Positions 30,108 through 64,000 of a stretch of DNA of 64,000 bases are shown in pieces. Source of the DNA: an uncultured Mycoplasmatota bacterium (lineage in GTDB: Bacteria; Bacillota_I; Bacilli_A; RF39; UBA660); assembly GCA_900552235.1 (NCBI GenBank), contig URYZ01000001.1, positions 177 through 64,176 on the forward strand, in the 5' to 3' direction. The notes below the pieces were generated by a model. It saw only the letters and a list, made by a program, of their open reading frames with translations. It searched no databases and was not told the origin of the DNA. Each line of letters begins with the position of its first letter. Positions within the stretch are counted from its first letter, which is position 1. The position numbers and the translations under genes were made by a program.

Positions 30108-30455
30108 CTATGACCTTTTTATTTCGTTGTCTTTACTTATAATAACATTATTATCCAATGACTTTGGTGTATAATTTATTATATTTTGATTCTTTAACAA
30201 ATCATATATTGTAGGAGCCCCAATAAAACTAAAAATAGCCACCCAAATTCCACTTATTGTATCTAAATTATAAAATGTTTTAGAAAAGAAAACACCAAAT
30301 GTTAAAGATAATATTATATTAATTAACCATATTTGACATTTACTTTTAACTATTGTAGTTAATTTTATTTTTTGAATCAAAGCCATTAAAACAACAGATA
30401 ATACTGCACTTATAGATAAAAGATCTAATAACTTATCTGGGATAAATCCTTCCAT
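30108..30455 (-). CDS. Small 3-TM membrane protein (holin-like topology)
   Basis: It is 115 aa with three hydrophobic helices. No motif was recognised. Confidence 0.3.
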   Translation of the reverse strand: MEGFIPDKLLDLLSISAVLSVVLMALIQKIKLTTIVKSKCQIWLINIILSLTFGVFFSKTFYNLDTISGIWVAIFSFIGAPTIYDLLKNQNIINYTPKSLDNNVIISKDNEIKRS

Positions 30456-30463
30456 AAACCTCC

Positions 30464-30775
30464 TTATTTTATAGGTATGTTATCTAGTTTCTTTATTAAA
30501 TCTTCAATAATATCACAACATTCAAGTTTCTTATACACTTCATACATATCTATAATATTTTGTTTTTCATATATACTTATTTCTTTTTTTTCAATTAATA
30601 AATTATATTGTTCTATTATATTAGACTTTAACATAACAATAACACCCTTATTAGTGGCATCAAGTGTTTTTTTATAATTTTTTATAGTTTTTACAAAATA
30701 TGTTAAAAATGAAAATATTAATCCAAATAAAACCTCTATCCAATACTTTAATATAAACTCTATAATAATAACCAC
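30464..30775 (-). CDS. Hypothetical 103-aa protein with an N-terminal TM helix
   Basis: It is an ORF only. Confidence 0.3.
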   Translation of the reverse strand: MVIIIEFILKYWIEVLFGLIFSFLTYFVKTIKNYKKTLDATNKGVIVMLKSNIIEQYNLLIEKKEISIYEKQNIIDMYEVYKKLECCDIIEDLIKKLDNIPIK

Positions 30776-30860: not shown

Positions 30861-31454
30861 TTATTCGTTTGTAAATGTAAAACGAGCAGAAATATTAGAA
30901 TAAGCAGTTCCATTTTGAGGATAAGATGAAAATACACCAGCACTTGAGCCATTACTATACTGAGAGCCACGTGAAAACCAAGGACTAGGAGAAACCACAA
31001 TTCCAAAATTATCATTATACCACCCATTTGTTTCTGTTAAAGCGTGGCCTTGATATGATGATGTTGTATAATTGTTGAAATATTTATCATTAGGGAATGT
31101 AGAAGAAGTAAAGCCTGAACTTCCTATAGTTTTTGAATAACTACCCATAACATAATCCCATGCTCCTCCACTCATATCATATATTCCATATATATTTCCT
31201 GTTGTTGATGCTCTCATTCCAAAAGCTGTATCATAAGAATTTGTTGTTGCTCCGGTATATGAACTTCCTGCTTCTGCACCTATTCCTGTTATATAAGTAC
31301 TATTATTATTTATTCCTACTTCAGTACTTACAAATCCAAAACTATTCCCTGTTTGTTCCATACTTCTACTTGCAAAAAAGAAATTACTTACACTATTATA
31401 CCTTAAACTCTTTACGCTTGGTTTTATTATTATTCCATTAGCATTACTTAACAC
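30861..31454 (-). pseudogene. 5'-truncated paralogue of the FGE/SUMF1-like (C-type-lectin-fold) C-terminal domain; GTG start immediately after an in-frame TGA, with no RBS or signal peptide
   Basis: NANGIIIKPSVKSLRYNSVSNFFFASRSMEQTGNSFGF...IYGIYDMSGGAWDYVMG...GHALTETNGWYND...WFSRGSQYSNGSSAGVFS...ISARFTFTNE is about 70-90% identical to residues about 372-622 of CDS 33577..35445 and to 62632..63909. The FGE motifs IYDMSGxxWE and RGGS-W are recognisable. Confidence 0.55.
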
Positions 31455-31493
31455 TCAAATATTTAATAATTAGACTTATTAACATTTTTCAAA

Positions 31494-31524
31494 ACTTCCC
31501 GCAGGATTTCACCCTGCAGGGAAG
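31494..31524 (-). other. GC-rich hairpin (11-12 bp stem with one bulge) immediately after the orphan repeat copy
   Basis: The minus strand reads TGA-TTTTT-CTTCCCTGCAGGG-TGAAAT-CCTGCGGGAAG-TTTTG. Confidence 0.6.
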
Positions 31525-31530
31525 AAAAAT

Positions 31531-31709
31531 CATAATCCAAGTGTATATGGATTACTTTCAGTTCCATCACCACCAGTGATTTGTACTGCAGATGTTAGAT
31601 AAACAACTGGCCTGACCGCAAAGTGGTAGGCGCCGACGTTGTTGTTGTTAACGTTCCCATCCGAATTGACATTGAACGCATTGTTACTGTTACTGCTATT
31701 CTGGGGCAA
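31531..31709 (-). repeat. Orphan repeat copy: DGR-like template-repeat (TR) candidate rich in AAC/AAT codons
   Basis: In-frame translation gives LPQNSSNSNNAFNVNSDGNVNNNNVGAYHFAVRPVVYLTSAVQITGGDGTESNPYTLGL*. It has no start codon. It is homologous to the 3' end of CDS 31858..33390, and the differences there are at its adenines. Confidence 0.6.
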
Positions 31710-31820
31710 TCAAACATACCTTATATATATAAATAATTTAATTATAACTTTTATTATTATAATTAATTATATATACCTTTACTACTTCTTTTTATAATTT
31801 ATACTTATTAACAATTTTTT

Positions 31821-31851
31821 TACTTCCCGCAAGATGTTACCTTGCAGGGAA
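31821..31851 (-). other. GC-rich hairpin immediately after the stop of CDS 31858..33390 (VR-flanking), with compensatory base changes relative to the 31494-31524 copy
   Basis: The minus strand reads TAG-AATAG-CTTCCCTGCAAGG-TAACAT-CTTGCGGGAAG. AAG/CTT here corresponds to AGG/CCT in the other copy. Confidence 0.6.
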
Positions 31852-31857
31852 GCTATT

Positions 31858-33390
31858 CTAAACACCAAGTTGATATGGATTACTTTCAGTTCCATCACCG
31901 CCAGTGATTTGTACTGCAGATGTTAGATATAGGACTGGCCTGACCGCAAAAGGGGTGATGCTGACGTAGAGGCGGTTGTAAACGTTCCCATCCGAATGGA
32001 CAAGGAACGCATCGCTACTGCCACTGCTACCCTGGGGCAATAACCATTCAGTTTCTTTTATATTATATAACCAGTTTGTATCATTACATGCTCGTAAATC
32101 TGTTGTTTCTGTATCATTTAATTTCTTTGTTTCACAATTAGCGCTTGCATATCCATAATCACTTTCATACATTAATGCTAGTTTTCCAACCCAACTATTT
32201 GGATTTGTAGAGTAATAATAATCACTTCCACTTATCTTTCTTTCATAACTATACATATCTTGTGATGTTTGAGAAGTAGCATTATATCCACCTAAATAGT
32301 ATTTTGAACTACTTATCATACTTTGTGCTTCACTTGTTAACGTATTATAATAATCTCCATTTAAATAGGTATTTAGTGTTGCTGGTCTTGCCCAATTATT
32401 TGTACAACTAGAACACTGTTCAGGTGCAGTCATCATAATATTATATTTGTCTTTTTCTTCTAAATATTTAACTTTTATTTTATTGTCATCTTGTAATAAT
32501 AATAAATTATCATTTTTACTATCATAATTATATGCTGTTGTTCCATCATCCCAAGAATAAGTTCCTATACTTTCGTTTCTTATTAGTTTTATTCTATTTT
32601 CTATGTTGCCATTTTCATCTTCTGTTGGAAATACTCCAATTATTCTCCATATTTCATTATTAAATGTTACATAGTTTTTTGGACTTGCTCCACGATATCT
32701 ATACTCTGTTACACTTTCTGTTGTTCCTATTTGAAGGGTACTATCTGCACTATGAACTATTGTATATAATCCACTATCATTTAGGTTATCTGTTTGTGAT
32801 ATTAATGTTTCTGTTCCTATTGGAATACTTTCTATATTTTGTATTCCATTTATTTTTAATGTAAGAAATATTTTTTGTCCCACTAATGCTTCTTTTGCTT
32901 CATCTTCTAAGTTTCCAAAATCTAACCATAATCTTAATTTATAATTAACTGTATCTTCGACATCTAATGTTACTTTGTCTATTAATCTATTTACATCTTT
33001 TAAATTTACGATTATTTCTTTACTATTATTTTTTAATAATCCTACTTTTATATATTTTTCATTTAATATTGTTCCTGTATAACTTGAATTAGGTTTATCT
33101 ACTAATGATATTTCATAATCTGTTATTGTATTTCCTGTATTTTTTATTGTAAATTCATAATATTCTTCTTGGGCCATTCCTTCATAATCTGTTAATTCTT
33201 GTAAATTATTTAAAACTAGTCCATTTGTACTTTCTGTTAATGTAAAATTTACTACTCCTGTTTTTATAATATGATTTTTATTTGTATTTATTGTATTTTC
33301 ATATATTGCAAATGTTGTACCTATTACAATTGATGTTACTCCTAATAAAGTAAGTAACATTGCTATTTTTCTTTTCATATTTTCTTTCAT
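31858..33390 (-). CDS. Secreted protein: SipW-type signal peptide plus TasA/camelysin-like N-domain, with a C-terminal DUF1566/Lcl-like C-type-lectin-fold domain carrying the candidate DGR variable repeat (VR, about 31860-32039)
   Basis: The N-terminus MKRKIAMLLTLLGVTSIVIGTTFAIYENT...IIKTGVVNFTLTES...NLQELTDYEG...EYYEFTIKNTG aligns to the TasA N-region (GGGTWAAFND...GTLDLS...NLKPGD...FQFENNGS). The C-terminus ...TEWLLPQGSSGSSDAFLVHSDGNVYNRLYVSITPFAVRPVLYL resembles the DUF1566 W-LP...AVRxV motif. The 3' 180 nt are GC-rich. Confidence 0.7.
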   Translation of the reverse strand: MKENMKRKIAMLLTLLGVTSIVIGTTFAIYENTINTNKNHIIKTGVVNFTLTESTNGLVLNNLQELTDYEGMAQEEYYEFTIKNTGNTITDYEISLVDKPNSSYTGTILNEKYIKVGLLKNNSKEIIVNLKDVNRLIDKVTLDVEDTVNYKLRLWLDFGNLEDEAKEALVGQKIFLTLKINGIQNIESIPIGTETLISQTDNLNDSGLYTIVHSADSTLQIGTTESVTEYRYRGASPKNYVTFNNEIWRIIGVFPTEDENGNIENRIKLIRNESIGTYSWDDGTTAYNYDSKNDNLLLLQDDNKIKVKYLEEKDKYNIMMTAPEQCSSCTNNWARPATLNTYLNGDYYNTLTSEAQSMISSSKYYLGGYNATSQTSQDMYSYERKISGSDYYYSTNPNSWVGKLALMYESDYGYASANCETKKLNDTETTDLRACNDTNWLYNIKETEWLLPQGSSGSSDAFLVHSDGNVYNRLYVSITPFAVRPVLYLTSAVQITGGDGTESNPYQLGV

Positions 33391-33471
33391 AATATCAACA
33401 CCTTATTAACTTTATAAATTAATTATATAAAACACCCTCCCCAGGTTGTCAATATTTTTTATACATTTTAA

Positions 33472-33501
33472 CAAAAAAGACGAAGTTTTAAAGTTCGTCT
33501 T
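33472..33501 (-). terminator. Rho-independent terminator after CDS 33577..35445
   Basis: agacgaagttttaaagttcgtct. The stem is AGACGAA/TTCGTCT and is followed by TTTTTTG on the minus strand. Confidence 0.55.
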
Positions 33502-33576
33502 AAAGTAATTTTTCTTTTTAAATATTATTTTTATTAATTATTAGTAACTCATTCTAAAATCAAAATTTTATTTTGA

Positions 33577-35445
33577 TTATTCATTTATTATTACGAATCG
33601 TGAAGATAGATTTTTGTCTCCTCCTCCAGGAGAACCAATAAAATTAAATATTATTGCTGATAAAGACATATTGTATCCTCCACCTCTATAAAAACAAGGT
33701 TGACTTTTGTCAGCAAAAAATGCAAAAGAACCATACCAATCTTGTGTTTCAGTTAATGCATGACCTGTATAAGATGATCCTGTATATAGATTATAATACT
33801 TACTATCTGGAAACGCTATTCCTGTATAGGTTGTTCCATCACTCAACATTCCTGTAAATCCTGAATTAGAACTAATAGTATATCCTGATCTTGGTTTTCC
33901 ATTTGTATCTGCAAATATTCCCATAACAAATTCATAACTTCCACCTGCCATATCATATATTCCATATATTGTTCCTGTTGTTGAGGCATCTTTTCCAAGT
34001 GTTGTATTATATGCTCCATTTGTTGCAGAATCATTGCTTCCTGCAGGCGCTCCATATCCTGTTATTGTATTTTGATTATTATTAATTCCTACTGCCGCAC
34101 ATGTTGTACTATTAGTGCATCTTCCATATATACTTTGAGTTAAATATGCTACTGCCCCCCATTCATTATTTTTACTCATATGAGTATCTACTTCATCCTT
34201 TATAAATCCAAAACTATTTCCTGTTTGTTCCATACTTCTACTTGCAAAGAAGAAATTACTTAAATTATTATATTGTAAACTTGTTACATTTGGTTTTATT
34301 ATTATTCCATTAGCATTACTACATGTTTCATTTGTACATCCTAAATTATTTTTTGTCGTATTTGATGCTAAAGTTGCATGTCCTGTTTCAAACTTACCAT
34401 ACCAAAATCCGCTTAACTCTTTATTTCCAAAAGTAAATGCATCGATTGCAGGTTCATTTTGTTTAGCAAATGTTACATCTATTGCATTTGGTTTAGTTTT
34501 TGTTCCTCCATTATAATTACTTGGTGTTACAGCTTTAAATCTTGGTATCCATACCCACATTGTATTTATGTCATCCATACTTATTGTTGTACCTGGTGTT
34601 GCATTTAAATAAGTTTGTCTATTTGTATCTTTTACTGTTACAGCATTTGCCCACATTCCTTTATTTTCTCCACTTGATTCATAACTATACCATCTATAAT
34701 CTTTTTGTGAATTATTCTTATCTGCTTTTTTCCATACATTATTTGATTCATCATAATATACTGGAATCATATTTGATGCTAAAACTGGTTTATTTGCTCC
34801 ACTTGTATCTAAATTTTGTTCTATTGTACTTACATTAACTTTAAACTTAAAAGTACAACCTGTTAAAGAAATATTAGTTTTACTATCATCTATTTCTTGT
34901 TTTACTGTATATTTACTCATATTAATATCACTTTTTAACCATACTCTTAATCTATATGTATGTGTTTGTATTTCATTTGAATTATTATACATAAAACTAT
35001 TATTATATATTACTTTAGCATTAGCTATTTTTTTACTATTTCCTAAATTACTTATTAATATAGGATTTACTAATGCATTATCATTACCATCAGTTAAATA
35101 TGCTTTAACATCATTTTCTTCAAAACTATTAGTAGTACTTGTTTTAAGTATAGATATTTCATAATTAATACTCATATCTTTAACTAAATTACTTGCTACA
35201 TTAAACTCAAAATAATTTTCTTTAATTCCTTCTGTATCACTTTTTGGTTCCATATTAGTTATAGATATTTTATCTTCACTTTCTTTATATGTAAATGATA
35301 TTACATCTGTTGATACAAAATGTGTTTTTTGTCCTTCTAATTTTATTTTATAATAAGCATAACTTACTAATATAATACAACTTAATAAAGTTATAAATAA
35401 AGGTATTAATTTTATAAACAATTCTTTTTTATTAACATTTTTCAT
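33577..35445 (-). CDS. Secreted protein: SipW-type signal peptide plus TasA/camelysin-like N-domain, with a C-terminal FGE/SUMF1-like C-type-lectin-fold domain
   Basis: The N-terminus MKNVNKKELFIKLIPLFITLLSCIILVSYAYYKIK...HFVSTDVISFTYKES...ITNMEPKSDTEG...ENYFEFNVASN is TasA-like. The C-terminal FGE-like motifs are IYGIYDMAGGSYEFVMG, GHALTETQDWYG and FYRGGGY...LSSRFVIINE. Confidence 0.7.
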   Translation of the reverse strand: MKNVNKKELFIKLIPLFITLLSCIILVSYAYYKIKLEGQKTHFVSTDVISFTYKESEDKISITNMEPKSDTEGIKENYFEFNVASNLVKDMSINYEISILKTSTTNSFEENDVKAYLTDGNDNALVNPILISNLGNSKKIANAKVIYNNSFMYNNSNEIQTHTYRLRVWLKSDINMSKYTVKQEIDDSKTNISLTGCTFKFKVNVSTIEQNLDTSGANKPVLASNMIPVYYDESNNVWKKADKNNSQKDYRWYSYESSGENKGMWANAVTVKDTNRQTYLNATPGTTISMDDINTMWVWIPRFKAVTPSNYNGGTKTKPNAIDVTFAKQNEPAIDAFTFGNKELSGFWYGKFETGHATLASNTTKNNLGCTNETCSNANGIIIKPNVTSLQYNNLSNFFFASRSMEQTGNSFGFIKDEVDTHMSKNNEWGAVAYLTQSIYGRCTNSTTCAAVGINNNQNTITGYGAPAGSNDSATNGAYNTTLGKDASTTGTIYGIYDMAGGSYEFVMGIFADTNGKPRSGYTISSNSGFTGMLSDGTTYTGIAFPDSKYYNLYTGSSYTGHALTETQDWYGSFAFFADKSQPCFYRGGGYNMSLSAIIFNFIGSPGGGDKNLSSRFVIINE

Positions 35446-38430: not shown

Positions 38431-38454
38431 TTTATTGAATAGGAAGGTATGAAT

Positions 38455-39153
38455 ATGGAAAAAGAAAATGTTGAAAAACAAAAAACTATTATTACAATAA
38501 TTATAGTAATATTATTATCAGTACTCATATTAGGAATATCATATGCGTTTTTTACTGCAGTAATTCATAGTAATAGTGAAAATAAAATAACTACTGGTGT
38601 TATTAATTTTTCATACACGGAAAACGAGAATGTTATTAATTTAGAAAATGTTTCAAGTATGACAGATGAAGAAGGTATTGCAAGTGAAAATTATTTTGGA
38701 TTTAATTTAAGTGTTACTGCAACAGGTACAATAAAGTTATATTATTATATTTACTTTACTGTAGATCCTACTAGTACATTAGGTAAAGATGCTGTTAAAG
38801 TAAACTTAACACAAGCAGAAAGTGATTCATCTACTATTGCAAGTGAAAGTCAAATCGTTAATCCAACTTACATTAGTGATTTAACATCTTTTAATTTAGA
38901 AACATTCAAATATGATAAAACTTCAAATGATTATTTACTTTATTTAGATAATTTTGAATTTGCAAATAGCTCTACTGCTAAAAAAAGATATTATAGATTT
39001 AGAATGTGGTATTCACCAAAAGGTACAAGTAATGTTAATATAACTGAAACAGAAGATGGAAACCATCAAGCAGTAATTTCAGGTGGAAACTTAAAATTAA
39101 AAGTTAATATCTATAGTAGTCAAACTGAATTAAAAATGATTACAAAGTCATAG
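38455..39153 (+). CDS. Stand-alone TasA/camelysin/CotN-like secreted protein (SipW-type signal peptide), with no C-terminal lectin domain
   Basis: TIITIIIVILLSVLILGISYAFFTAV...KITTGVINFSYTENENVINLENVSSMTDEEGIASENYFGFNLSV...KRYYRFRMWYSP. It shares the N-domain pattern with CDS 31858..33390 and 33577..35445. Confidence 0.6.
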   Translation: MEKENVEKQKTIITIIIVILLSVLILGISYAFFTAVIHSNSENKITTGVINFSYTENENVINLENVSSMTDEEGIASENYFGFNLSVTATGTIKLYYYIYFTVDPTSTLGKDAVKVNLTQAESDSSTIASESQIVNPTYISDLTSFNLETFKYDKTSNDYLLYLDNFEFANSSTAKKRYYRFRMWYSPKGTSNVNITETEDGNHQAVISGGNLKLKVNIYSSQTELKMITKS

Positions 39154-39230: not shown

Positions 39231-40715
39231 ATGTTAGAAAATATAATTAGTGCAATTGGACAAAGTTATGAAACTAGTAGAACTATCTATAATATATTTG
39301 GTAGTGTATTAGGAATAATGACAATATATAAAACAGTTTATTTCTTAATAGGTCTTTTTTTTACAAGAAAGTTTAAACCTGCTAAAAATAAACATAAATA
39401 TGGAATATTAATAGCAGCAAGAAATGAAGAAGCTGTTATTGGTAATTTATTAGATAGTATTAATAAACAAGATTATCCTAAAAATCTAGTAGATGTTTTT
39501 GTTGTAGCAGATAACTGTAATGATAATACAGCAAAAATTGCAAGAAGTTATGGTGCAAAATGTTATGAAAGATTTGATAACGAACATAAAACAAAAGGAT
39601 TTGCCCTACAATTTTTATTTGAAAATATAAAAAAAGATTATGGTATAGAAAGTTATGAAGGTTACTTTATATTTGATGCCGATAACTTATTAAATAAAAA
39701 TTATATTACTAAAATGAATGATGCTTTTGATAGTGGTGAGAAAATAATTACTTCATATAGAAACACAAAAAACTTCGATGAAAACTGGATAGCGTCAACA
39801 TATGCAATACACTGGTTAAGAAGTATTCGTGCTAATCATAGAGCACGTAGTGTTTTACATCTTGCTACAAATATTCAAGGAACAGGTTTTTTATTTGCTA
39901 ATGAAGTAGTTAGAAATGGTTGGAAATATACAGGATTAACAGAAGACAGAGCATTAACTGCTGATGCTGTTAGTCGTGGTTATGAAATAACTTATCAAGA
40001 TGAAGCAGAATTTTTTGATGAACAACCAATTAGTTTAAAAGTTGCTTTAAGACAAAGACTACGTTGGAGTAAAGGTCACTTAATGGCGTTTTGTGAATCT
40101 GGCCCTCAACTATTTGTTAATATTTTCTTTGGTAAATTATTTATAAAAGATAACTGGGGAAAAGTTGAAAAAGAAAGAAGCTTTTTTGGAAAAATAGTTG
40201 AATCAATTAGACATAGATTTGCGTCTTATGATACTTTAATGCAACTTACTCCCCTAGTTGTTATTAACTTAATTAGATGGTTAATTGTCAGTGTATTTAT
40301 TTATGCATGTTACTCATATTTAAATGGAATTAATAACCTATATATCTTTGGAGGAAGTACATTTGTTGCAAAACTATTATCAATGTTATTTAATAAGCCT
40401 TATATAAATGTTGAGCCTGGTGTAAAAGCATTCTTTATATCAATGTTAATGGCAATTTGGTTAAGGTTATTATACCGAATTGGTAGATATTTTATTAATA
40501 TGTGGGTAGCTGTTTATGTCTTTATTATAGAAAGAAAAAGAATTAAAAAGATCCCATTTAAAAAGAAAGTTTTATATACATTAACATGGCCTACTTTTGA
40601 TATTATAGGAAGATATACAATTTATTTAGCTTTATTTGTTAAAGTAACTTGGAAACCAATTCCACATGTTAGTAAAGTTACTATTGATGAAGTTGATACA
40701 TCAAAAAAAGAATGA
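39231..40715 (+). CDS. Processive family-2 glycosyltransferase (polysaccharide synthase; cellulose-synthase/PgaC-like)
   Basis: It has an N-terminal TM helix, a GT2 domain with DxD (FDADN) and RQRLRWSKGH (QxxRW), then 4-5 C-terminal TM helices. Confidence 0.7.
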   Translation: MLENIISAIGQSYETSRTIYNIFGSVLGIMTIYKTVYFLIGLFFTRKFKPAKNKHKYGILIAARNEEAVIGNLLDSINKQDYPKNLVDVFVVADNCNDNTAKIARSYGAKCYERFDNEHKTKGFALQFLFENIKKDYGIESYEGYFIFDADNLLNKNYITKMNDAFDSGEKIITSYRNTKNFDENWIASTYAIHWLRSIRANHRARSVLHLATNIQGTGFLFANEVVRNGWKYTGLTEDRALTADAVSRGYEITYQDEAEFFDEQPISLKVALRQRLRWSKGHLMAFCESGPQLFVNIFFGKLFIKDNWGKVEKERSFFGKIVESIRHRFASYDTLMQLTPLVVINLIRWLIVSVFIYACYSYLNGINNLYIFGGSTFVAKLLSMLFNKPYINVEPGVKAFFISMLMAIWLRLLYRIGRYFINMWVAVYVFIIERKRIKKIPFKKKVLYTLTWPTFDIIGRYTIYLALFVKVTWKPIPHVSKVTIDEVDTSKKE

Positions 40716-40730
40716 TTTTTTCATTCTTTT

Positions 40731-42206
40731 TTATATTACTATTGCTATTAAATTATTTGAACCTTTATTTACAACTTTAGACATTGTTTGTTGAATTTTA
40801 TATCTAATATTTTCAGGCATCATAGCTATTTTAGATTGGATACCCTCTTGAACAATTACATCAAGGCTTCTTCCAAATATTTCACTATTCCAAATATTCT
40901 TAGGGTCAGTTTCGCTGCCCTTCATTAGATAGTCTATTAATTCTTTACTTTGTACTTCGCTACCTATAATTGGTTCGAATGTACTTTCAACATCTACCCT
41001 AATCATATGAATTGAAGGTGCAGTTGCTTTAAGCTTAATTCCATATCTGCTTCCTTGTTTCGTTATTTCAGGTGTATCTAATTTCATATCATTTAATGTT
41101 GGATTAGCAACACCATAACCAGTTGTTTTAACCATTTTAAGAGCAACTTTTATTTGTTCATACTCTTCTTTAGATTCTTTATAATCTTGAAACATTGCAA
41201 GTAAATCAGCTTTTGTTGTTATGTCTTGCCCCATCATTTCATTTAAAACATTTGTAAATAATTCGTCTGGAGCTTCAAGTTTTACAATAACTGTTCCTGT
41301 TGAAGGATCAACTTTTGACATATAAGCATTTGTAATGTATTCGTTATTTTTAAAGTGTCCTGTTATATTTTCAACATCACGTAATTTATCAACTTCAATA
41401 ACGCTTTCTTTTATTGATTCAATATAAGCTTTTTTAACATAATGATCTTTTTTAAGTACCCCAATCCAACTTGGAAGTTCAACTTTAACTTCACATATAG
41501 GAAATTCATATAAAGCTTCCCTTAAAATATCAAATGTATCTTTTTCATTCATATTTAATACATCCATTGGTAGTACTGGAACGTTGTAACTTTCTCTTAA
41601 AGAATTAGCAAGACTTCTTGCTTCATTACTATTAGGAGTAGTTGAATTAAGAACTATTATAAATGGTTTATTTATACTTTTTAATTCTTGAACAACTTTT
41701 TCTTCTGCTTTTACATAATCATTTCTATCAAATTCTCCAATTGAGCCATCTGTTGTAACAATAATTCCTATTGTAGAATGATCTTTTATAACCTTTTCTG
41801 TTCCTATTTCAGCTGCTTCCACAAAAGGTATTTCATCAGTATACCATGGTGTTTTAACCATTCTTGGACCATTTTCATCTTCATATCCTTTAGCATTATC
41901 GATAACATAACCTACACAGTCAACAAGCCTCATATTACATTCAAGGTCATCTATTTTTACTTTAGCAACGTTATTTGGAACAAATTTAGGTTCAATTGTC
42001 ATAATAGTTTTACCACCAGATGATTGTGGTGTTTCATCAAGAGCTCTTTTCTTTTCAAATTCATCACTAATATTAGGAATTATTAAATTTTCTAATACTT
42101 TCTTAATAAAAGTTGATTTACCTGTTCTTACTGCTCCAACAACACCTAAATAAATATCTCCACCCGTTCTTAAAGCAATATTTTTTATTATTTCTTGTTT
42201 ATCCAT
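40731..42206 (-). CDS. spoIVA: Stage IV sporulation protein A (spore-coat morphogenetic ATPase)
   Basis: TGGDIYLGVVGAVRTGKSTFIKK...TPQSSGGKTIMTIEPKFVPN...RLVDCVGYVIDNAKGYEDENGPRMVKTPWY...IPFVEAAEIGTEKVIKDHSTIGIIVTTDG is near-identical in pattern to B. subtilis SpoIVA. Confidence 0.9.
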   Translation of the reverse strand: MDKQEIIKNIALRTGGDIYLGVVGAVRTGKSTFIKKVLENLIIPNISDEFEKKRALDETPQSSGGKTIMTIEPKFVPNNVAKVKIDDLECNMRLVDCVGYVIDNAKGYEDENGPRMVKTPWYTDEIPFVEAAEIGTEKVIKDHSTIGIIVTTDGSIGEFDRNDYVKAEEKVVQELKSINKPFIIVLNSTTPNSNEARSLANSLRESYNVPVLPMDVLNMNEKDTFDILREALYEFPICEVKVELPSWIGVLKKDHYVKKAYIESIKESVIEVDKLRDVENITGHFKNNEYITNAYMSKVDPSTGTVIVKLEAPDELFTNVLNEMMGQDITTKADLLAMFQDYKESKEEYEQIKVALKMVKTTGYGVANPTLNDMKLDTPEITKQGSRYGIKLKATAPSIHMIRVDVESTFEPIIGSEVQSKELIDYLMKGSETDPKNIWNSEIFGRSLDVIVQEGIQSKIAMMPENIRYKIQQTMSKVVNKGSNNLIAIVI

Positions 42207-62631: not shown

Positions 62632-64000
62632 CTATTCATTGGAAATTACAAGACGCGAAGAGTAGCCAGAAGCCGAAATACCATAGCTGCCGGCGAAGCC
62701 AAACACTCCTGCACCTGCAGTCGCACCAAAGTAGTAGCTGCCGCCACGATAGAACCATGGGTAAATCGTATTAGCGAAGTAAACGCTATCACTATACCAG
62801 CCAGCTGTTTCTGTTAAGGCATGACCTGTATAAGATGATTCTGTATATAAATTATAATATTTACTATCCGGAAAAGAAACTCCTGTATATGTTGTTCCAT
62901 CTTTTAACATACCAGTAAAGCCTGAATTATATGATGAACTATCGCCAGATCTTGGGTTACCATTTGTATCTGCAAGTACTCCCATGACATATTCACTTGC
63001 TCCACCACTCATATCATATATTCCATATATATTCTTTGTTGTTGAAGCTCCTGTTCCTTTTCCCTTTGCCTTTTTTCCTTTTGTATTTGTATCATAGTTT
63101 AATAAATAATCATCATATGTATAAAATCCATATGTATTATAATTTGTTGTACTTGTTTGATCGGTATATGTTCCATTTATTGGTGTCTTCCCTGCTGCTC
63201 CTCCACTTCGCCCTGTATAATATCCTTCACTATTATTTATATATACTTCAGTACATGTTGTACTAGTAGTACATCTTCCATAGATACTTTGAGTTAAGTA
63301 AGCTACTGCTCCCCATTCATTATTTTTACTCATATGGGTATCTACTTCGCTTGAAACAAATCCAAAACTATTTCCTGTTTGTTCCATACTTCTACTTGCA
63401 AAAAAGAAATTACTTACATTATTATATCTTAAACTTTTTACATTTGGTTTTATTATTATGCCATTTGCGTTACTACATGTTGTAGTTGTACACCCTAAAT
63501 TATTGTTAGTTGTACTTGATGATAAGGTACTGTGACTCACTTCAAACTTAGCATACCAAAATCCACTTAACTCTTTTGTTCCAAAAGTAAAGGCATCAAT
63601 TGCTGTTTCATTTTGTTTTACAAATGTTACATCTATTGCTCCAGGATTATCTTTTGTTCCTCCATTATAATTACTTGGTGTTACTACATTAAATCTTGGT
63701 ATCCATACCCACATTGTTGTTATATCATTCATACTTATTGCTGTACCTATACTTGCATTTAAATATTTACTTCTACTTGAACTTGTTACAGTTACCGCAT
63801 TAGCCCACATCCCATTATTATAATTATACCATTTATAAGTATTATTAGGATTAGCTAAATCTGCTTTTTTCCATGTTTCTGTTGTTTCATCATAATAAAC
63901 TGGGAGCATGTTTGATACTAGAACTGGTGCATTTGGTTTTTTTTCTATTTTCCCTACAGTAGCTTCAATTACATTACTACTTGTTTTTGTAAAACTAAAT
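62632..64000 (-). CDS. Paralogue of 33577..35445 (TasA-like N-region plus FGE/SUMF1-like C-type-lectin-fold domain), 5' end beyond the window; it has a GC-rich, A-depleted 3' end
   Basis: The reading frame stays open to position 64000 (FSFTKTSSNVIEATVGKIEKKPNAPVLVSNMLPVYYDE...). It is about 90% identical to gene 33577..35445 through NANGIIIKPNVKSLRYNNVSNFFFASRSMEQTGNSFGF...DTHMSKNNEWGAVAYLTQSIYGRC. Its C-terminal 40 aa (FYRGGSYYFGATAGAGVFGFAGSYGISASGYSSRLVISNE) are unique. Confidence 0.7.
   Translation of the reverse strand, partial: FSFTKTSSNVIEATVGKIEKKPNAPVLVSNMLPVYYDETTETWKKADLANPNNTYKWYNYNNGMWANAVTVTSSSRSKYLNASIGTAISMNDITTMWVWIPRFNVVTPSNYNGGTKDNPGAIDVTFVKQNETAIDAFTFGTKELSGFWYAKFEVSHSTLSSSTTNNNLGCTTTTCSNANGIIIKPNVKSLRYNNVSNFFFASRSMEQTGNSFGFVSSEVDTHMSKNNEWGAVAYLTQSIYGRCTTSTTCTEVYINNSEGYYTGRSGGAAGKTPINGTYTDQTSTTNYNTYGFYTYDDYLLNYDTNTKGKKAKGKGTGASTTKNIYGIYDMSGGASEYVMGVLADTNGNPRSGDSSSYNSGFTGMLKDGTTYTGVSFPDSKYYNLYTESSYTGHALTETAGWYSDSVYFANTIYPWFYRGGSYYFGATAGAGVFGFAGSYGISASGYSSRLVISNE

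Follow-up and report, generated by a model that had tools for sequence, protein, structure and literature searches.

The window, that is the whole 64-kb stretch of DNA analysed here, comes from a spore-forming gut Firmicute that is a relative of 'Mycoplasma sp. CAG:611', and codes for several proteins, secreted or at the surface, that belong to a modular and very large family. An earlier note had described four paralogous ORFs (A to D), with C-terminal tails diversified by a diversity-generating retroelement (DGR). The four ORFs are present, all on the minus strand. The note overlooked a template repeat (TR) remnant at 31495-31710 and a fifth family member at 38449-39153 on the plus strand; both are included below, together with the variable regions (VRs).

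30861..31454, minus strand: fragment C, 197 aa; copy of the A/D-type head, N-terminally truncated and internally deleted
31495..31524, minus strand: hairpin 2, of a presumably lost second target gene (dG -11.7 kcal/mol, z -4.9); the conserved junction to C follows
31530..31637, minus strand: 3' half of the TR chimera, with mutagenised NNC codons GTC GGC GCC TAC CAC and a second B-type target 3' end (ending in FAVRPVVYLTSAVQITGGDGTESNPYTLGL and a stop)
31638..31703, minus strand: pristine 5' half of the TR remnant (repeat families D6 and D13; TR/VR comparison)
31823..31852, minus strand: hairpin 1, GC-rich, 6 nt past the stop of B (dG -10.5 kcal/mol, z -5.6)
31858..33390, minus strand: gene B, 510 aa; N-module in common with A, CLec2-like head ('DUF1566-like' type), DGR VR at the end
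31931..32034, minus strand: VR of B; variable codons at 31951-32031, then a conserved GC-rich 3' segment, TTTGCGGTCAGGCCAGTC
33577..35445, minus strand: gene A, 622 aa; signal peptide, N-terminal beta-sandwich module (residues ~1-214), A/D-type (FGE-like) head
38449..39153, plus strand: stand-alone N-module protein, 234 aa; matched over its full length by hmmsearch with a 54-sequence profile (E 3.8e-51)
62632..64000, minus strand: gene D, with an A/D-type head, a short leader and no beta-sandwich module; ~38 N-terminal residues lie beyond the window
62641..62805, minus strand: VR-like tail of D, A-poor and GC-rich; variable codons nearly all NNC or NNT

As the note had it, A, C and D (62632->64000) have one C-terminal domain in common and that of B is unlike it. 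The N-terminal module attributed to all full-length members is shared by A and B (~190 aa, ~25% identical, each matching the family profile at E 1e-48 to 1e-51) but is missing from D. A full-length homologue of D (P0121, 493 aa, 98% identical) consists of a leader, ~20 residues and then the head. Fragment C lacks a leader and has a stop codon immediately upstream; its exact 197-aa ORF recurs in at least 21 contigs, and longer fragments stand in its place in three others (L004-L006). It is probably a truncated remnant, whose tail has also decayed or drifted. The exact A protein was found on 4 contigs, and exact-protein look-ups of B matched no record.

The FGE-like copies had been given as about 90% identical, but the protein-level values are 67-74% and the nucleotide blocks 75-89%. 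The hypervariability of the tails is nevertheless clear and the tail peptides had been quoted correctly. The hypervariable stretch covers ~50 C-terminal residues in the paralogues, and identity falls sharply from the body of the protein to the last 50 residues, both within the window (A-D 74 to 44%, A-C 67 to 30%, D-C 73 to 35%) and between orthologues (A-P0216 87 to 36%, D-P0122 91 to 46%). The GC-rich, adenine-poor 3' ends reported for B and D are also there. Positions 31921-32040 of B have 52-57% GC and 17-23% A, against ~29% GC and ~43% A in the remainder of the gene; positions 62681-62800 of D have 45-58% GC and 15-20% A. The tail of A is AT-rich, at background composition (GC 27-35%), and A orthologues carry different, VR-like tails; that of A looks like a decayed former VR which has drifted back to genomic AT-richness.

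The VR of gene B differs from the adjacent template remnant at adenines

In DGRs generally, the reverse transcriptase (RT) and Avd copy the transcript of a TR and adenines are misread; the resulting cDNA then takes the place of the VR with which the target gene ends. At gene B the VR lies at the 3' end of the ORF and is followed by the conserved GC-rich segment and hairpin 1. The TR remnant (31623-31703) is directly downstream of the gene, and the two regions form a repeat pair (31494-31710 and 31822-32041). Its 5' half reads CAG AAT AGC AGT AAC AGT AAC AAT GCG TTC AAT GTC AAT TCG GAT GGG AAC GTT (AAC)4. Over these codons 1-22, which hold 27 A in 66 nt, all 14 mismatches between the VR of B and the remnant fall on remnant adenines. 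For the orthologous VRs, in L004 and L005, the count is 13/13 each, so that the 40 differences between the remnant and the three VRs are all on adenines. The VR of B thus relates to the adjacent remnant as adenine-specific DGR mutagenesis predicts. In this mechanism scaffold residues stay fixed because they are coded without adenines, while AAY codons can become any of about 15 residues.

Only half of the TR/VR pair is intact, since mutagenesis has also affected the 3' half of the TR copy in the window. The nine codons after codon 22 are NNC throughout, in every VR compared. The B-type profile matches 31533-31709 at E 2.6e-17, and segment 31530..31637 shares 86.6% identity with the target 3' end in Mycoplasma sp. 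CAG:611. The TR of the window sits at the same position, and after the same spacer, as the TR of that strain. Hairpin 1, which would be either a target-side element of the DGR or a terminator, is kept after the B-type targets of L004, L007 and L017; one A-T pair has become G-C through a compensatory change.

Cassettes in relatives and the probable loss of the enzymatic core

The cassette of Mycoplasma sp. CAG:611 (L007) is complete and comprises, in order, the target end, the same hairpin, the same spacer, the TR, a MutS_I-like ORF, bAvd (E 1.4e-9) and an RT that bears the motifs IGNMTSQ and YMDD. Two other loci (L008 and L009) have an identical TR but diverge in their VRs, where 17/18 and 18/20 changes fall on TR adenines. 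A DGR RT adjoins homologous targets in L007-L009 and L013-L015. The RTs of L013 and L014 are 72-76% identical to that of L007 and adjoin ~895-aa targets with the same N-module, and MutS-like and Avd-like ORFs resembling those of L007 occur in L014 and L015. Full cassettes (target, hairpin, TR, MutS-like gene, Avd, RT) were thus found both for the B type, in CAG:611 and gut contigs, and for the A/C/D type. In the latter case two IMG/VR contigs (L015 and L016) bear the TR YGDNANFVNSNNPWFNRGGNYSNTGNAGVFNFNNNNGNSNTNYGSRLSV; in L015 the neighbours of this TR are a homologous A/C/D-type target, an RT and ORFs that resemble MSL and Avd, and 23 A->N changes are seen. On the long contigs L003-L006 no RT adjoins the B-type homologues within 10 kb. 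One further RT match (L010, 30% identical) belongs to an unrelated phage DGR and was set aside.

When 75 unique tails are aligned, 23 columns stand out as the most variable, and these columns (22 in the tail) use the residue set derived from AAY. In these columns K, E, Q, M and W account for 4.8% of residues, against 15.4% in the protein bodies. The residue repertoire fits mutagenesis of AAY codons. With the cassettes of relatives and the 14/14 result for B, the reading of the tails as DGR variable regions was essentially right overall.

The earlier note had assumed a working system, but RT, Avd and MSL (the MutS-like gene) are all missing from the window, where the TR survives as a TR::VR fusion. 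Neither an RT with a TR nor an accessory gene (Avd, HRDC or MSL) lies within the 64 kb: tblastn of the L007 RT, Avd and MSL gave nothing better than E 0.5, no ORF in the window carries YxDD, and nothing there corresponds to the spacer (323-560) that follows the TR in L007. We therefore favour, at a probability of roughly three in four, the explanation that the lectin tails were written by a DGR whose enzymatic core has since been deleted. As parts of this same explanation, each protein would consist of a cleavable leader ending in (S/T)(Y/F)A, an optional ~170-aa beta-sandwich and one of two putative ligand-binding heads; the last 35-50 residues of each head would be the DGR variable region; and the VR of D would have been written recently and now be static between strains.

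The TR-to-VR copying described above would have acted on the proteins of the window in the same way. The ancestral order may have been B(VR1), hairpin, spacer, TR, MSL, avd, RT, a second B-type target (VR2), hairpin, C. A homologous recombination event joining the TR to VR2 would then have deleted the 3' part of the TR, the RNA spacer behind it, the MSL, avd and RT genes and the larger portion of the second target, and would have produced a TR::VR fusion. The fusion of the TR remnant to the 3' end of another target fits such a core-deleting recombination. Homology between the window and L017 (99.2%) starts ~164 nt upstream of C, within an intact B-type gene that ends in hairpin 2; L017-L019 and L022 have intact genes at the position of segment 31530..31637, and hairpin 2 with the junction to C is identical in L017 and L022. 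The two-target ancestor, which is seen in no single contig, is itself inferred. The TR::VR junction recurs in another assembly, L020, whose sequence is 100% identical across 8060 nt; L020 may share the sample of the window, so that the junction is confirmed across assemblies though perhaps not across samples. The contexts upstream of B-type genes vary between contigs, and part of this variation could be assembly chimerism at repeated genes. With its core lost, B would be frozen, unless a matching TR and RT lie elsewhere in the genome.

For D, two candidate templates were rejected. Fragment C does not qualify as a TR for A or D, because the mismatches are not adenine-specific and its tail is not AAY-rich. 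The TR of L015 is not cognate to D, because only 32 of the 66 mismatches fall on TR adenines. No cognate TR for the exact VR of D was found in the window or in the fetched loci (blastn returned only paralogous genes), and scans of viral contigs with the D-specific VR/TR backbone pattern and with a B-type TR 21-mer gave no match. Between D and L011, 2 nt differ in the VR and 15/1369 nt across the gene, against 6.3% in the flanks (93.7% identical).

These observations bear on the possibility that a split DGR is still working, with RT, Avd and TR elsewhere on the chromosome, on a prophage or on an ICE, and generates diversity in B, D or both in trans, which would make the local TR::VR fusion a by-product. 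DGRs are known to act on remote targets, and a second DGR with matching TRs could lie outside the 64-kb window. The D-type VRs, in D as in L012, are strongly adenine-depleted with no TR nearby and would therefore have been written from a distance; the DGR cassette of an A/D-type target is on a mobile-looking contig with a serine recombinase, and RT homologues are plentiful in the same habitat. We still hold a split system to be possible but unlikely, given that the 3' half of the VR of B fails to match the local remnant, that no RT lies within 64 kb, that the VR of D is almost identical between strains whose flanks are 6% apart, that the exact A protein recurs on 4 contigs, and that the A tail has lost the VR composition.

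Two other explanations were considered. The proteins could come from a decayed prophage and act in receptor binding or as tail fibres, with the DGR serving a phage tropism switch like that of BPP-1 and not a bacterial adhesin system. Two small ORFs directly 3' of C do match phrog_4105 (E 3.4e-14) and a holin (phrog_1299, E 2.3e-6), and L015 and L016 both come from IMG/VR, with a large serine recombinase encoded on L015. But all full-length members have Sec-type leaders, the flanks are housekeeping genes (nth, dnaD, gatCAB, gyrB-like, tRNA synthetases) with no phage structural genes, and the N-module family counts >6000 clusters, many of them fused to bacterial adhesin domains, all of which makes a phage origin very improbable. 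Cassette gene conversion in the style of pilE/pilS or vlsE, with C and the 31530-31710 fragment as silent donors, would account for promoterless partial copies directly 3' of expressed paralogues and for the conservation of the exact C ORF in many contigs, and recombination between paralogues clearly happens at this locus. It is, however, hardly credible as the source of the tails: gene conversion does not produce a pattern in which 40/40 differences between the fragment and three VRs are on adenines, the C tail matches neither that of A nor that of D, and RT, Avd and TR are present at homologous loci. A DGR that wrote the tails and then lost its core thus remains our preferred explanation.

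Head domains and the N-terminal module

The domain names proposed for the heads did not hold at family level. FGE-sulfatase (PF03781) stays below the Pfam gathering score of 23.3 bits (C 17.6, D 16.2, no match for A); the L015 target reaches 16.5 bits and 3/55 homologues match at E<0.05. DUF1566 (PF07603) matches neither B nor eight relatives, and the B-type heads match only DUF6273, below the cut-off (E 0.002-0.06). An A/D-head profile (15 sequences) gave nothing significant against PDB sequences, and the AlphaFold model of the D head is unusable (pLDDT 33). From motifs and sub-threshold Pfam matches, a C-type-lectin fold is putative for either head.

At 50% identity the N-module family resolves into 6146 clusters, and in many of these the module is fused to bacterial adhesin domains. 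The 'signal anchor' proposed for it was dropped in favour of a predicted cleavable leader, since the conserved (S/T)(Y/F)A is compatible with cleavage by SPase I. The TasA/camelysin assignment is unproven, all signals being weak and sub-threshold. A, B and the stand-alone paralogue have no Peptidase_M73 (PF12389) match at E<=1, while 6/54 distant relatives match (best E 6.9e-4, all below threshold) and 2/54 match the NCBIfam TasA and SipW-cognate models (E>0.01). With hhalign, the family profile aligns to TasA at 64% probability over 59 columns, covering the leader and first strands alone. N-module profiles (7 and 54 sequences) gave nothing significant against PDB sequences, TasA included, Foldseek returned no TasA match, and generic CBM-like beta-sandwiches outscore TasA. 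The sipW-type gene that the assignment would lead one to expect had no match within the window, with a B. subtilis SipW sequence and S26 motifs as query.

It is rather doubtful that the N-module is a donor-strand fibre subunit of the TasA superfamily, with the 38449-39153 protein as shaft, A and B as head-bearing subunits and D as the terminal one. In such a fibre D, made of a leader, a first-strand-like segment and a head with no beta-sandwich, would donate a strand and could not accept one. If true, this would be a Gram-positive fibre with DGR-diversified tips, independent of the Bacteroides type V pilus.

Comparison with known systems

Rewriting of binding tips by a DGR is a known mechanism; here only a broken copy of the template is left. 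The window would represent a natural DGR end-state, reached by recombination between TR and VR, with the RT gone, one VR frozen and the TR pristine over half its length. DGR finders that start from the RT will readily overlook orphan VRs and TR remnants of this kind, which could serve as tracers of past DGR activity. The analysis also adds two divergent head types, unrecognised by Pfam, to the bona fide DGR targets. The two occur in an uncultured lineage of gut Firmicutes and are carried by a single N-module family, very large and uncharacterised.

Among FGE-type (CLec1) DGR targets are TvpA of Treponema denticola and Mtd of the Bordetella phage BPP-1. For comparison with them we used published DGR target categories (PMC5758913). 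Like these targets, the A/C/D heads have a YDMSGG..E(Y/F)VMG block, aligned by Pfam to FGE-sulfatase ~150-217, and a tail of the form ...RGG.Y.....AGVF.F....G.S....SSR.V in which fixed and AAY-derived positions are interleaved. They differ in their sub-threshold Pfam scores, in a size of ~400 aa with long insertions, and in that their fold is putative.

The B-type head can be compared with LdtA of Legionella pneumophila, a 'category d' (CLec2) target in an MSL-containing cassette of architecture D (Wu et al. 2018, PMC5758913). In both cases the VR is at the extreme C-terminus of a surface protein and mutagenesis is adenine-specific. Pfam matches to the head are weak and mixed in both, as is described for category d heads (DUF1566, DUF823, Fib_succ_major; PMC5758913), although DUF1566 itself has no match here. 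The cassettes of the relatives hold MutS-like, Avd and RT genes, as in architecture D. Disparities nevertheless exist: the host is Gram-positive, a Sec leader replaces the lipoprotein anchor, the head is on an uncharacterised beta-sandwich module, and the window has no enzymatic core.

The resemblance to TasA/CalY (camelysin, Peptidase_M73), which form Bacillus biofilm fibres, lies in a leader with small-aromatic-Ala, x-F and then a (T/S)G(T/V)(L/I/V) first strand, in the many stand-alone members of ~180-230 aa, and in sub-threshold Peptidase_M73, TasA and SipW-cognate matches in a minority of distant members. However, A, B and the stand-alone paralogue have no family-level match, no sipW was found in the window, and the TasA-like leader motif is also an ordinary SPase I site.

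A parallel in architecture exists with the type V pili of Bacteroides, whose adhesins are DGR-diversified (Macadangdang et al., bioRxiv 10.1101/2024.11.15.621889) and which weaken the suggestion that the present architecture had not been described. Both systems occur in gut commensals, with horizontally mobile cassettes, and in both the diversified, putatively ligand-binding tips sit on a conserved module that non-diversified paralogues also have. They differ in phylum and in scaffold, and polymerisation of the N-module is hypothetical here; if it does polymerise, the family would parallel the DGR-diversified pilus adhesins of Bacteroides.

Four family ORFs and their variable tails

The four genes proposed in the earlier note were all found as minus-strand ORFs where it had placed them, in a window of ~25% GC:

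33577-35445, minus strand: gene A, 622 aa
31858-33390, minus strand: gene B, 510 aa
30861-31454, minus strand: fragment C, 197 aa
62632 to past 64000 (window edge), minus strand: gene D

A, C and D have a single C-terminal domain in common, that of B being another one. A and B share an N-terminal module of ~190 aa (N-module), where they are ~25% identical and each match the family profile with E 1e-48 to 1e-51. The protein bodies of the A/C/D type are 74% (A-D), 67% (A-C) and 73% (D-C) identical, i.e. below the “about 90%” first proposed, and these values fall to 44%, 30% and 35% over the last 50 residues. Thus the hypervariable C-terminal tail is real. GC-rich, adenine-poor 3' ends were confirmed by base composition for B (31921-32040: A 17–23%, GC 52–57%) and D (62681-62800: A 15–20%, GC 45–58%) relative to the gene background (A ~43%, GC ~30%), but do not extend to A: its tail, with K, Q, M and ATA/AAA codons, has the genomic composition, while the tails of its orthologues resemble variable regions (VRs).

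The domain names fared less well in direct Pfam and NCBIfam scans of the ORFs. Peptidase_M73/TasA gave no match. FGE-sulfatase appeared below threshold in Pfam, on C and D only. DUF1566, expected on B, did not match, the sole signal there being a sub-threshold DUF6273.

Template repeats and the two head types

Between B and C, which are 404 nt apart, lies a near copy of the 3' end of B (repeat search, families D6 and D13), a feature absent from the earlier note. Its coding-strand sequence is CAG AAT AGC AGT AAC AGT AAC AAT GCG TTC AAT GTC AAT TCG GAT GGG AAC GTT AAC AAC AAC AAC ..., and this AAY-rich sequence is the signature of a template repeat (TR) of a diversity-generating retroelement (DGR). 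Over 22 codons the VR of B differs from the copy at 14 positions, 14/14 at adenines of the copy (27 of its 66 nt are adenines); the orthologous VRs of contigs L004 and L005 have 13 mismatches each, every one at adenines. The nine codons that follow are NNC throughout in every VR, the outcome to be expected where a template has consecutive AAC codons. At this place the copy has GTC GGC GCC TAC CAC, codons that are themselves already mutagenised. Past them it runs through the end of a B-type gene (...FAVRPVVYLTSAVQITGGDGTESNPYTLGL*) to a stop codon, beyond which a second GC-rich hairpin follows. The copy is therefore a chimera, with a pristine TR as 5' half and a VR with the 3' end of a target gene as 3' half.

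A 21-mer of the pristine half, scanned against species-representative genomes, matched one of them, Mycoplasma sp. CAG:611. The order of its locus is target 3' end, hairpin, AT-rich spacer (hairpin and spacer being those of the window), TR, MutS_I-like ORF, bAvd (E 1.4e-9) and a 373-aa reverse transcriptase (RT) with the motifs IGNMTSQ and YMDD. The window is colinear with it from the 3' end of B through the TR, then turns to a target 3' end. Two metagenome contigs carry an RT and a TR identical to those of CAG:611 with different VRs, whose changes lie at TR adenines in 17/18 and 18/20 cases. In two more cassettes the RTs are 72–76% identical and adjoin targets of ~895 aa with the N-module found in the window and a B-type head. 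Having a MutS-like (MSL) gene and weakly matching “DUF1566/Fib_succ_major” targets, the cassettes of these relatives correspond to categories in Wu et al. 2018 (PMC5758913).

The A/C/D head belongs to a large family (7067 matches among 8000 candidates scored). For 75 unique tails, 22 of the 23 most variable alignment columns fall in the tail; between them W, Y, D, F, V, PWF, RGG, AGVF, G, S and SSR.VI are invariant. The variable columns contain S, N, Y, D, G, I, A, L, F, T and V, and K/E/Q/M/W amount to 4.8% there versus 15.4% in the protein bodies, which is the repertoire of AAY codons. A degenerate TR-like pattern built from the tail consensus matched two IMG/VR contigs. One of them, L015, comprises an A/D homologue, an MSL-like ORF, a TR encoding YGDNANFVNSNNPWFNRGGNYSNTGNAGVFNFNNNNGNSNTNYGSRLSV, an Avd-like ORF, a 340-aa RT and a serine recombinase, and its VR shows 23 A->N changes relative to its TR. 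The A/C/D head is thus a DGR target as well. As D's own template the L015 TR was rejected, adenines accounting for 32/66 mismatches only, and the searches run found no TR for D.

State and history of the locus

A tblastn search of the window with RT, Avd and MSL from the CAG:611 relative found nothing (best E 0.5); the window has no YxDD ORF and no counterpart of the non-coding segment 3' of the CAG:611 TR. At least 21 contigs have the exact C ORF, and in all of them the same genes follow it. Immediately upstream of C, L017-L019 and L022 have a B-type gene that is intact (479–504 aa), and at its end come hairpin 2 and the junction seen in the window; homology between L017 and the window (99.2%) sets in ~164 nt upstream of C, within the 3' end of the B-type gene. 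The junction is also present in a second assembly, L020 (100% identity over 8060 nt), possibly from the same sample. ERR1190952 and SAMEA3708878, candidates for the source samples, have identical sequence. In the simplest history, the ancestral state would be one cassette with a target on either side, collapsed by a TR x VR2 recombination that would have removed MSL, avd, RT and most of the second target.

C has no leader, is immediately preceded by a stop codon and is internally deleted relative to the L004 fragment. At the start junctions, SNAN is followed by GIIIKP in C (31454) and by APVLASNM in L004 (~11640). This is consistent with a microhomology-mediated (GCTAATG) deletion of ~160 codons. 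Directly 3' of C lie:

30464-30775, minus strand: small membrane ORF
30108-30455, minus strand: small membrane ORF

The pair matches phage families (phrog_4105, E 3.4e-14; holin phrog_1299, E 2.3e-6), has neither an endolysin nor phage structural genes close by, and is kept in 6/6 listed C-bearing contigs (L017-L022).

Upstream neighbours of the B-type gene and C vary (smpB/RNase R, rmuC, tRNA genes, nth with gene A; L017, L018 and L004 contexts), a variation that stems either from recombination between the multi-copy paralogues or from repeats at which the assemblies are chimeric. Downstream of C, all loci with the exact ORF (L017-L022 and the window) agree, the L004 fragment preceding instead cdsA and rseP.

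D differs from the allele of contig L011 at 15/1369 nt, of which 2 in the VR, for flanks 6.3% different; its VR is therefore not undergoing rewriting between these two strains. The identity of D (62632-64000 versus L011 52-1533) is 98.9%, that of flanking housekeeping genes (gatCAB, others) only 93.7%, which suggests that the D allele was exchanged recently or is under unusually strong constraint.

The N-module, TasA and known systems

The N-module family is very large, with 6146 clusters at 50% identity (E<=0.001). Many relatives stand alone, at 180–230 aa; in others, adhesin-type domains are fused to the module. One stand-alone member, a fifth paralogue that the earlier note had missed, is in the window:

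38449-39153, plus strand: stand-alone N-module protein, 234 aa (family profile E 3.8e-51)

A family-2 glycosyltransferase lies 3' of it (39231-40715, plus strand). P0121, a full-length D homologue, has a leader and ~20 residues without the beta-sandwich.

Peptidase_M73 matches 6/54 N-module relatives (best E 6.9e-4), the NCBIfam TasA and SipW-cognate models 2/54 each, and hhalign aligns the family profile with TasA (sequence verified identical to PDB 8aur) over 59 columns, those of the leader and first strands, at 64% probability. As evidence for a relationship with TasA, these matches are weak but recurrent. TasA was not among the listed Foldseek matches, HMM searches against PDB sequences were empty, and the window contains no sipW-like gene. 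Membership of the TasA/camelysin family is not established, and a TasA-like fibre displaying DGR-diversified tips has a low probability. The A/D-type head also occurs behind an ALK/LTK-type glycine-rich domain (PF12810; P0125, P0130, others) or alongside dockerin (PF00404; P0170, P0228), so that the head is a shuffled module.

The gene content includes SpoIVA, a PBP transpeptidase and Mur ligases (window 40731-42206, minus strand; L001 and L004 locus tables). The host is therefore a walled Firmicute, probably spore-forming, and “Mycoplasma/Tenericutes” is a misleading label for its relatives.

Three points are new: an uncultured lineage of gut Firmicutes has two divergent head types, both share a single N-module, and the RT was probably lost by recombination, leaving a TR::VR fusion behind. 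Mechanism and target logic are the same as in the known DGRs of BPP-1 Mtd, Treponema TvpA and Legionella LdtA (Wu et al. 2018). The view of an undescribed architecture is softened: in Bacteroides, the type V pili are a described counterpart in which tips carried on a conserved module of a surface organelle are diversified by DGRs (bioRxiv 10.1101/2024.11.15.621889).
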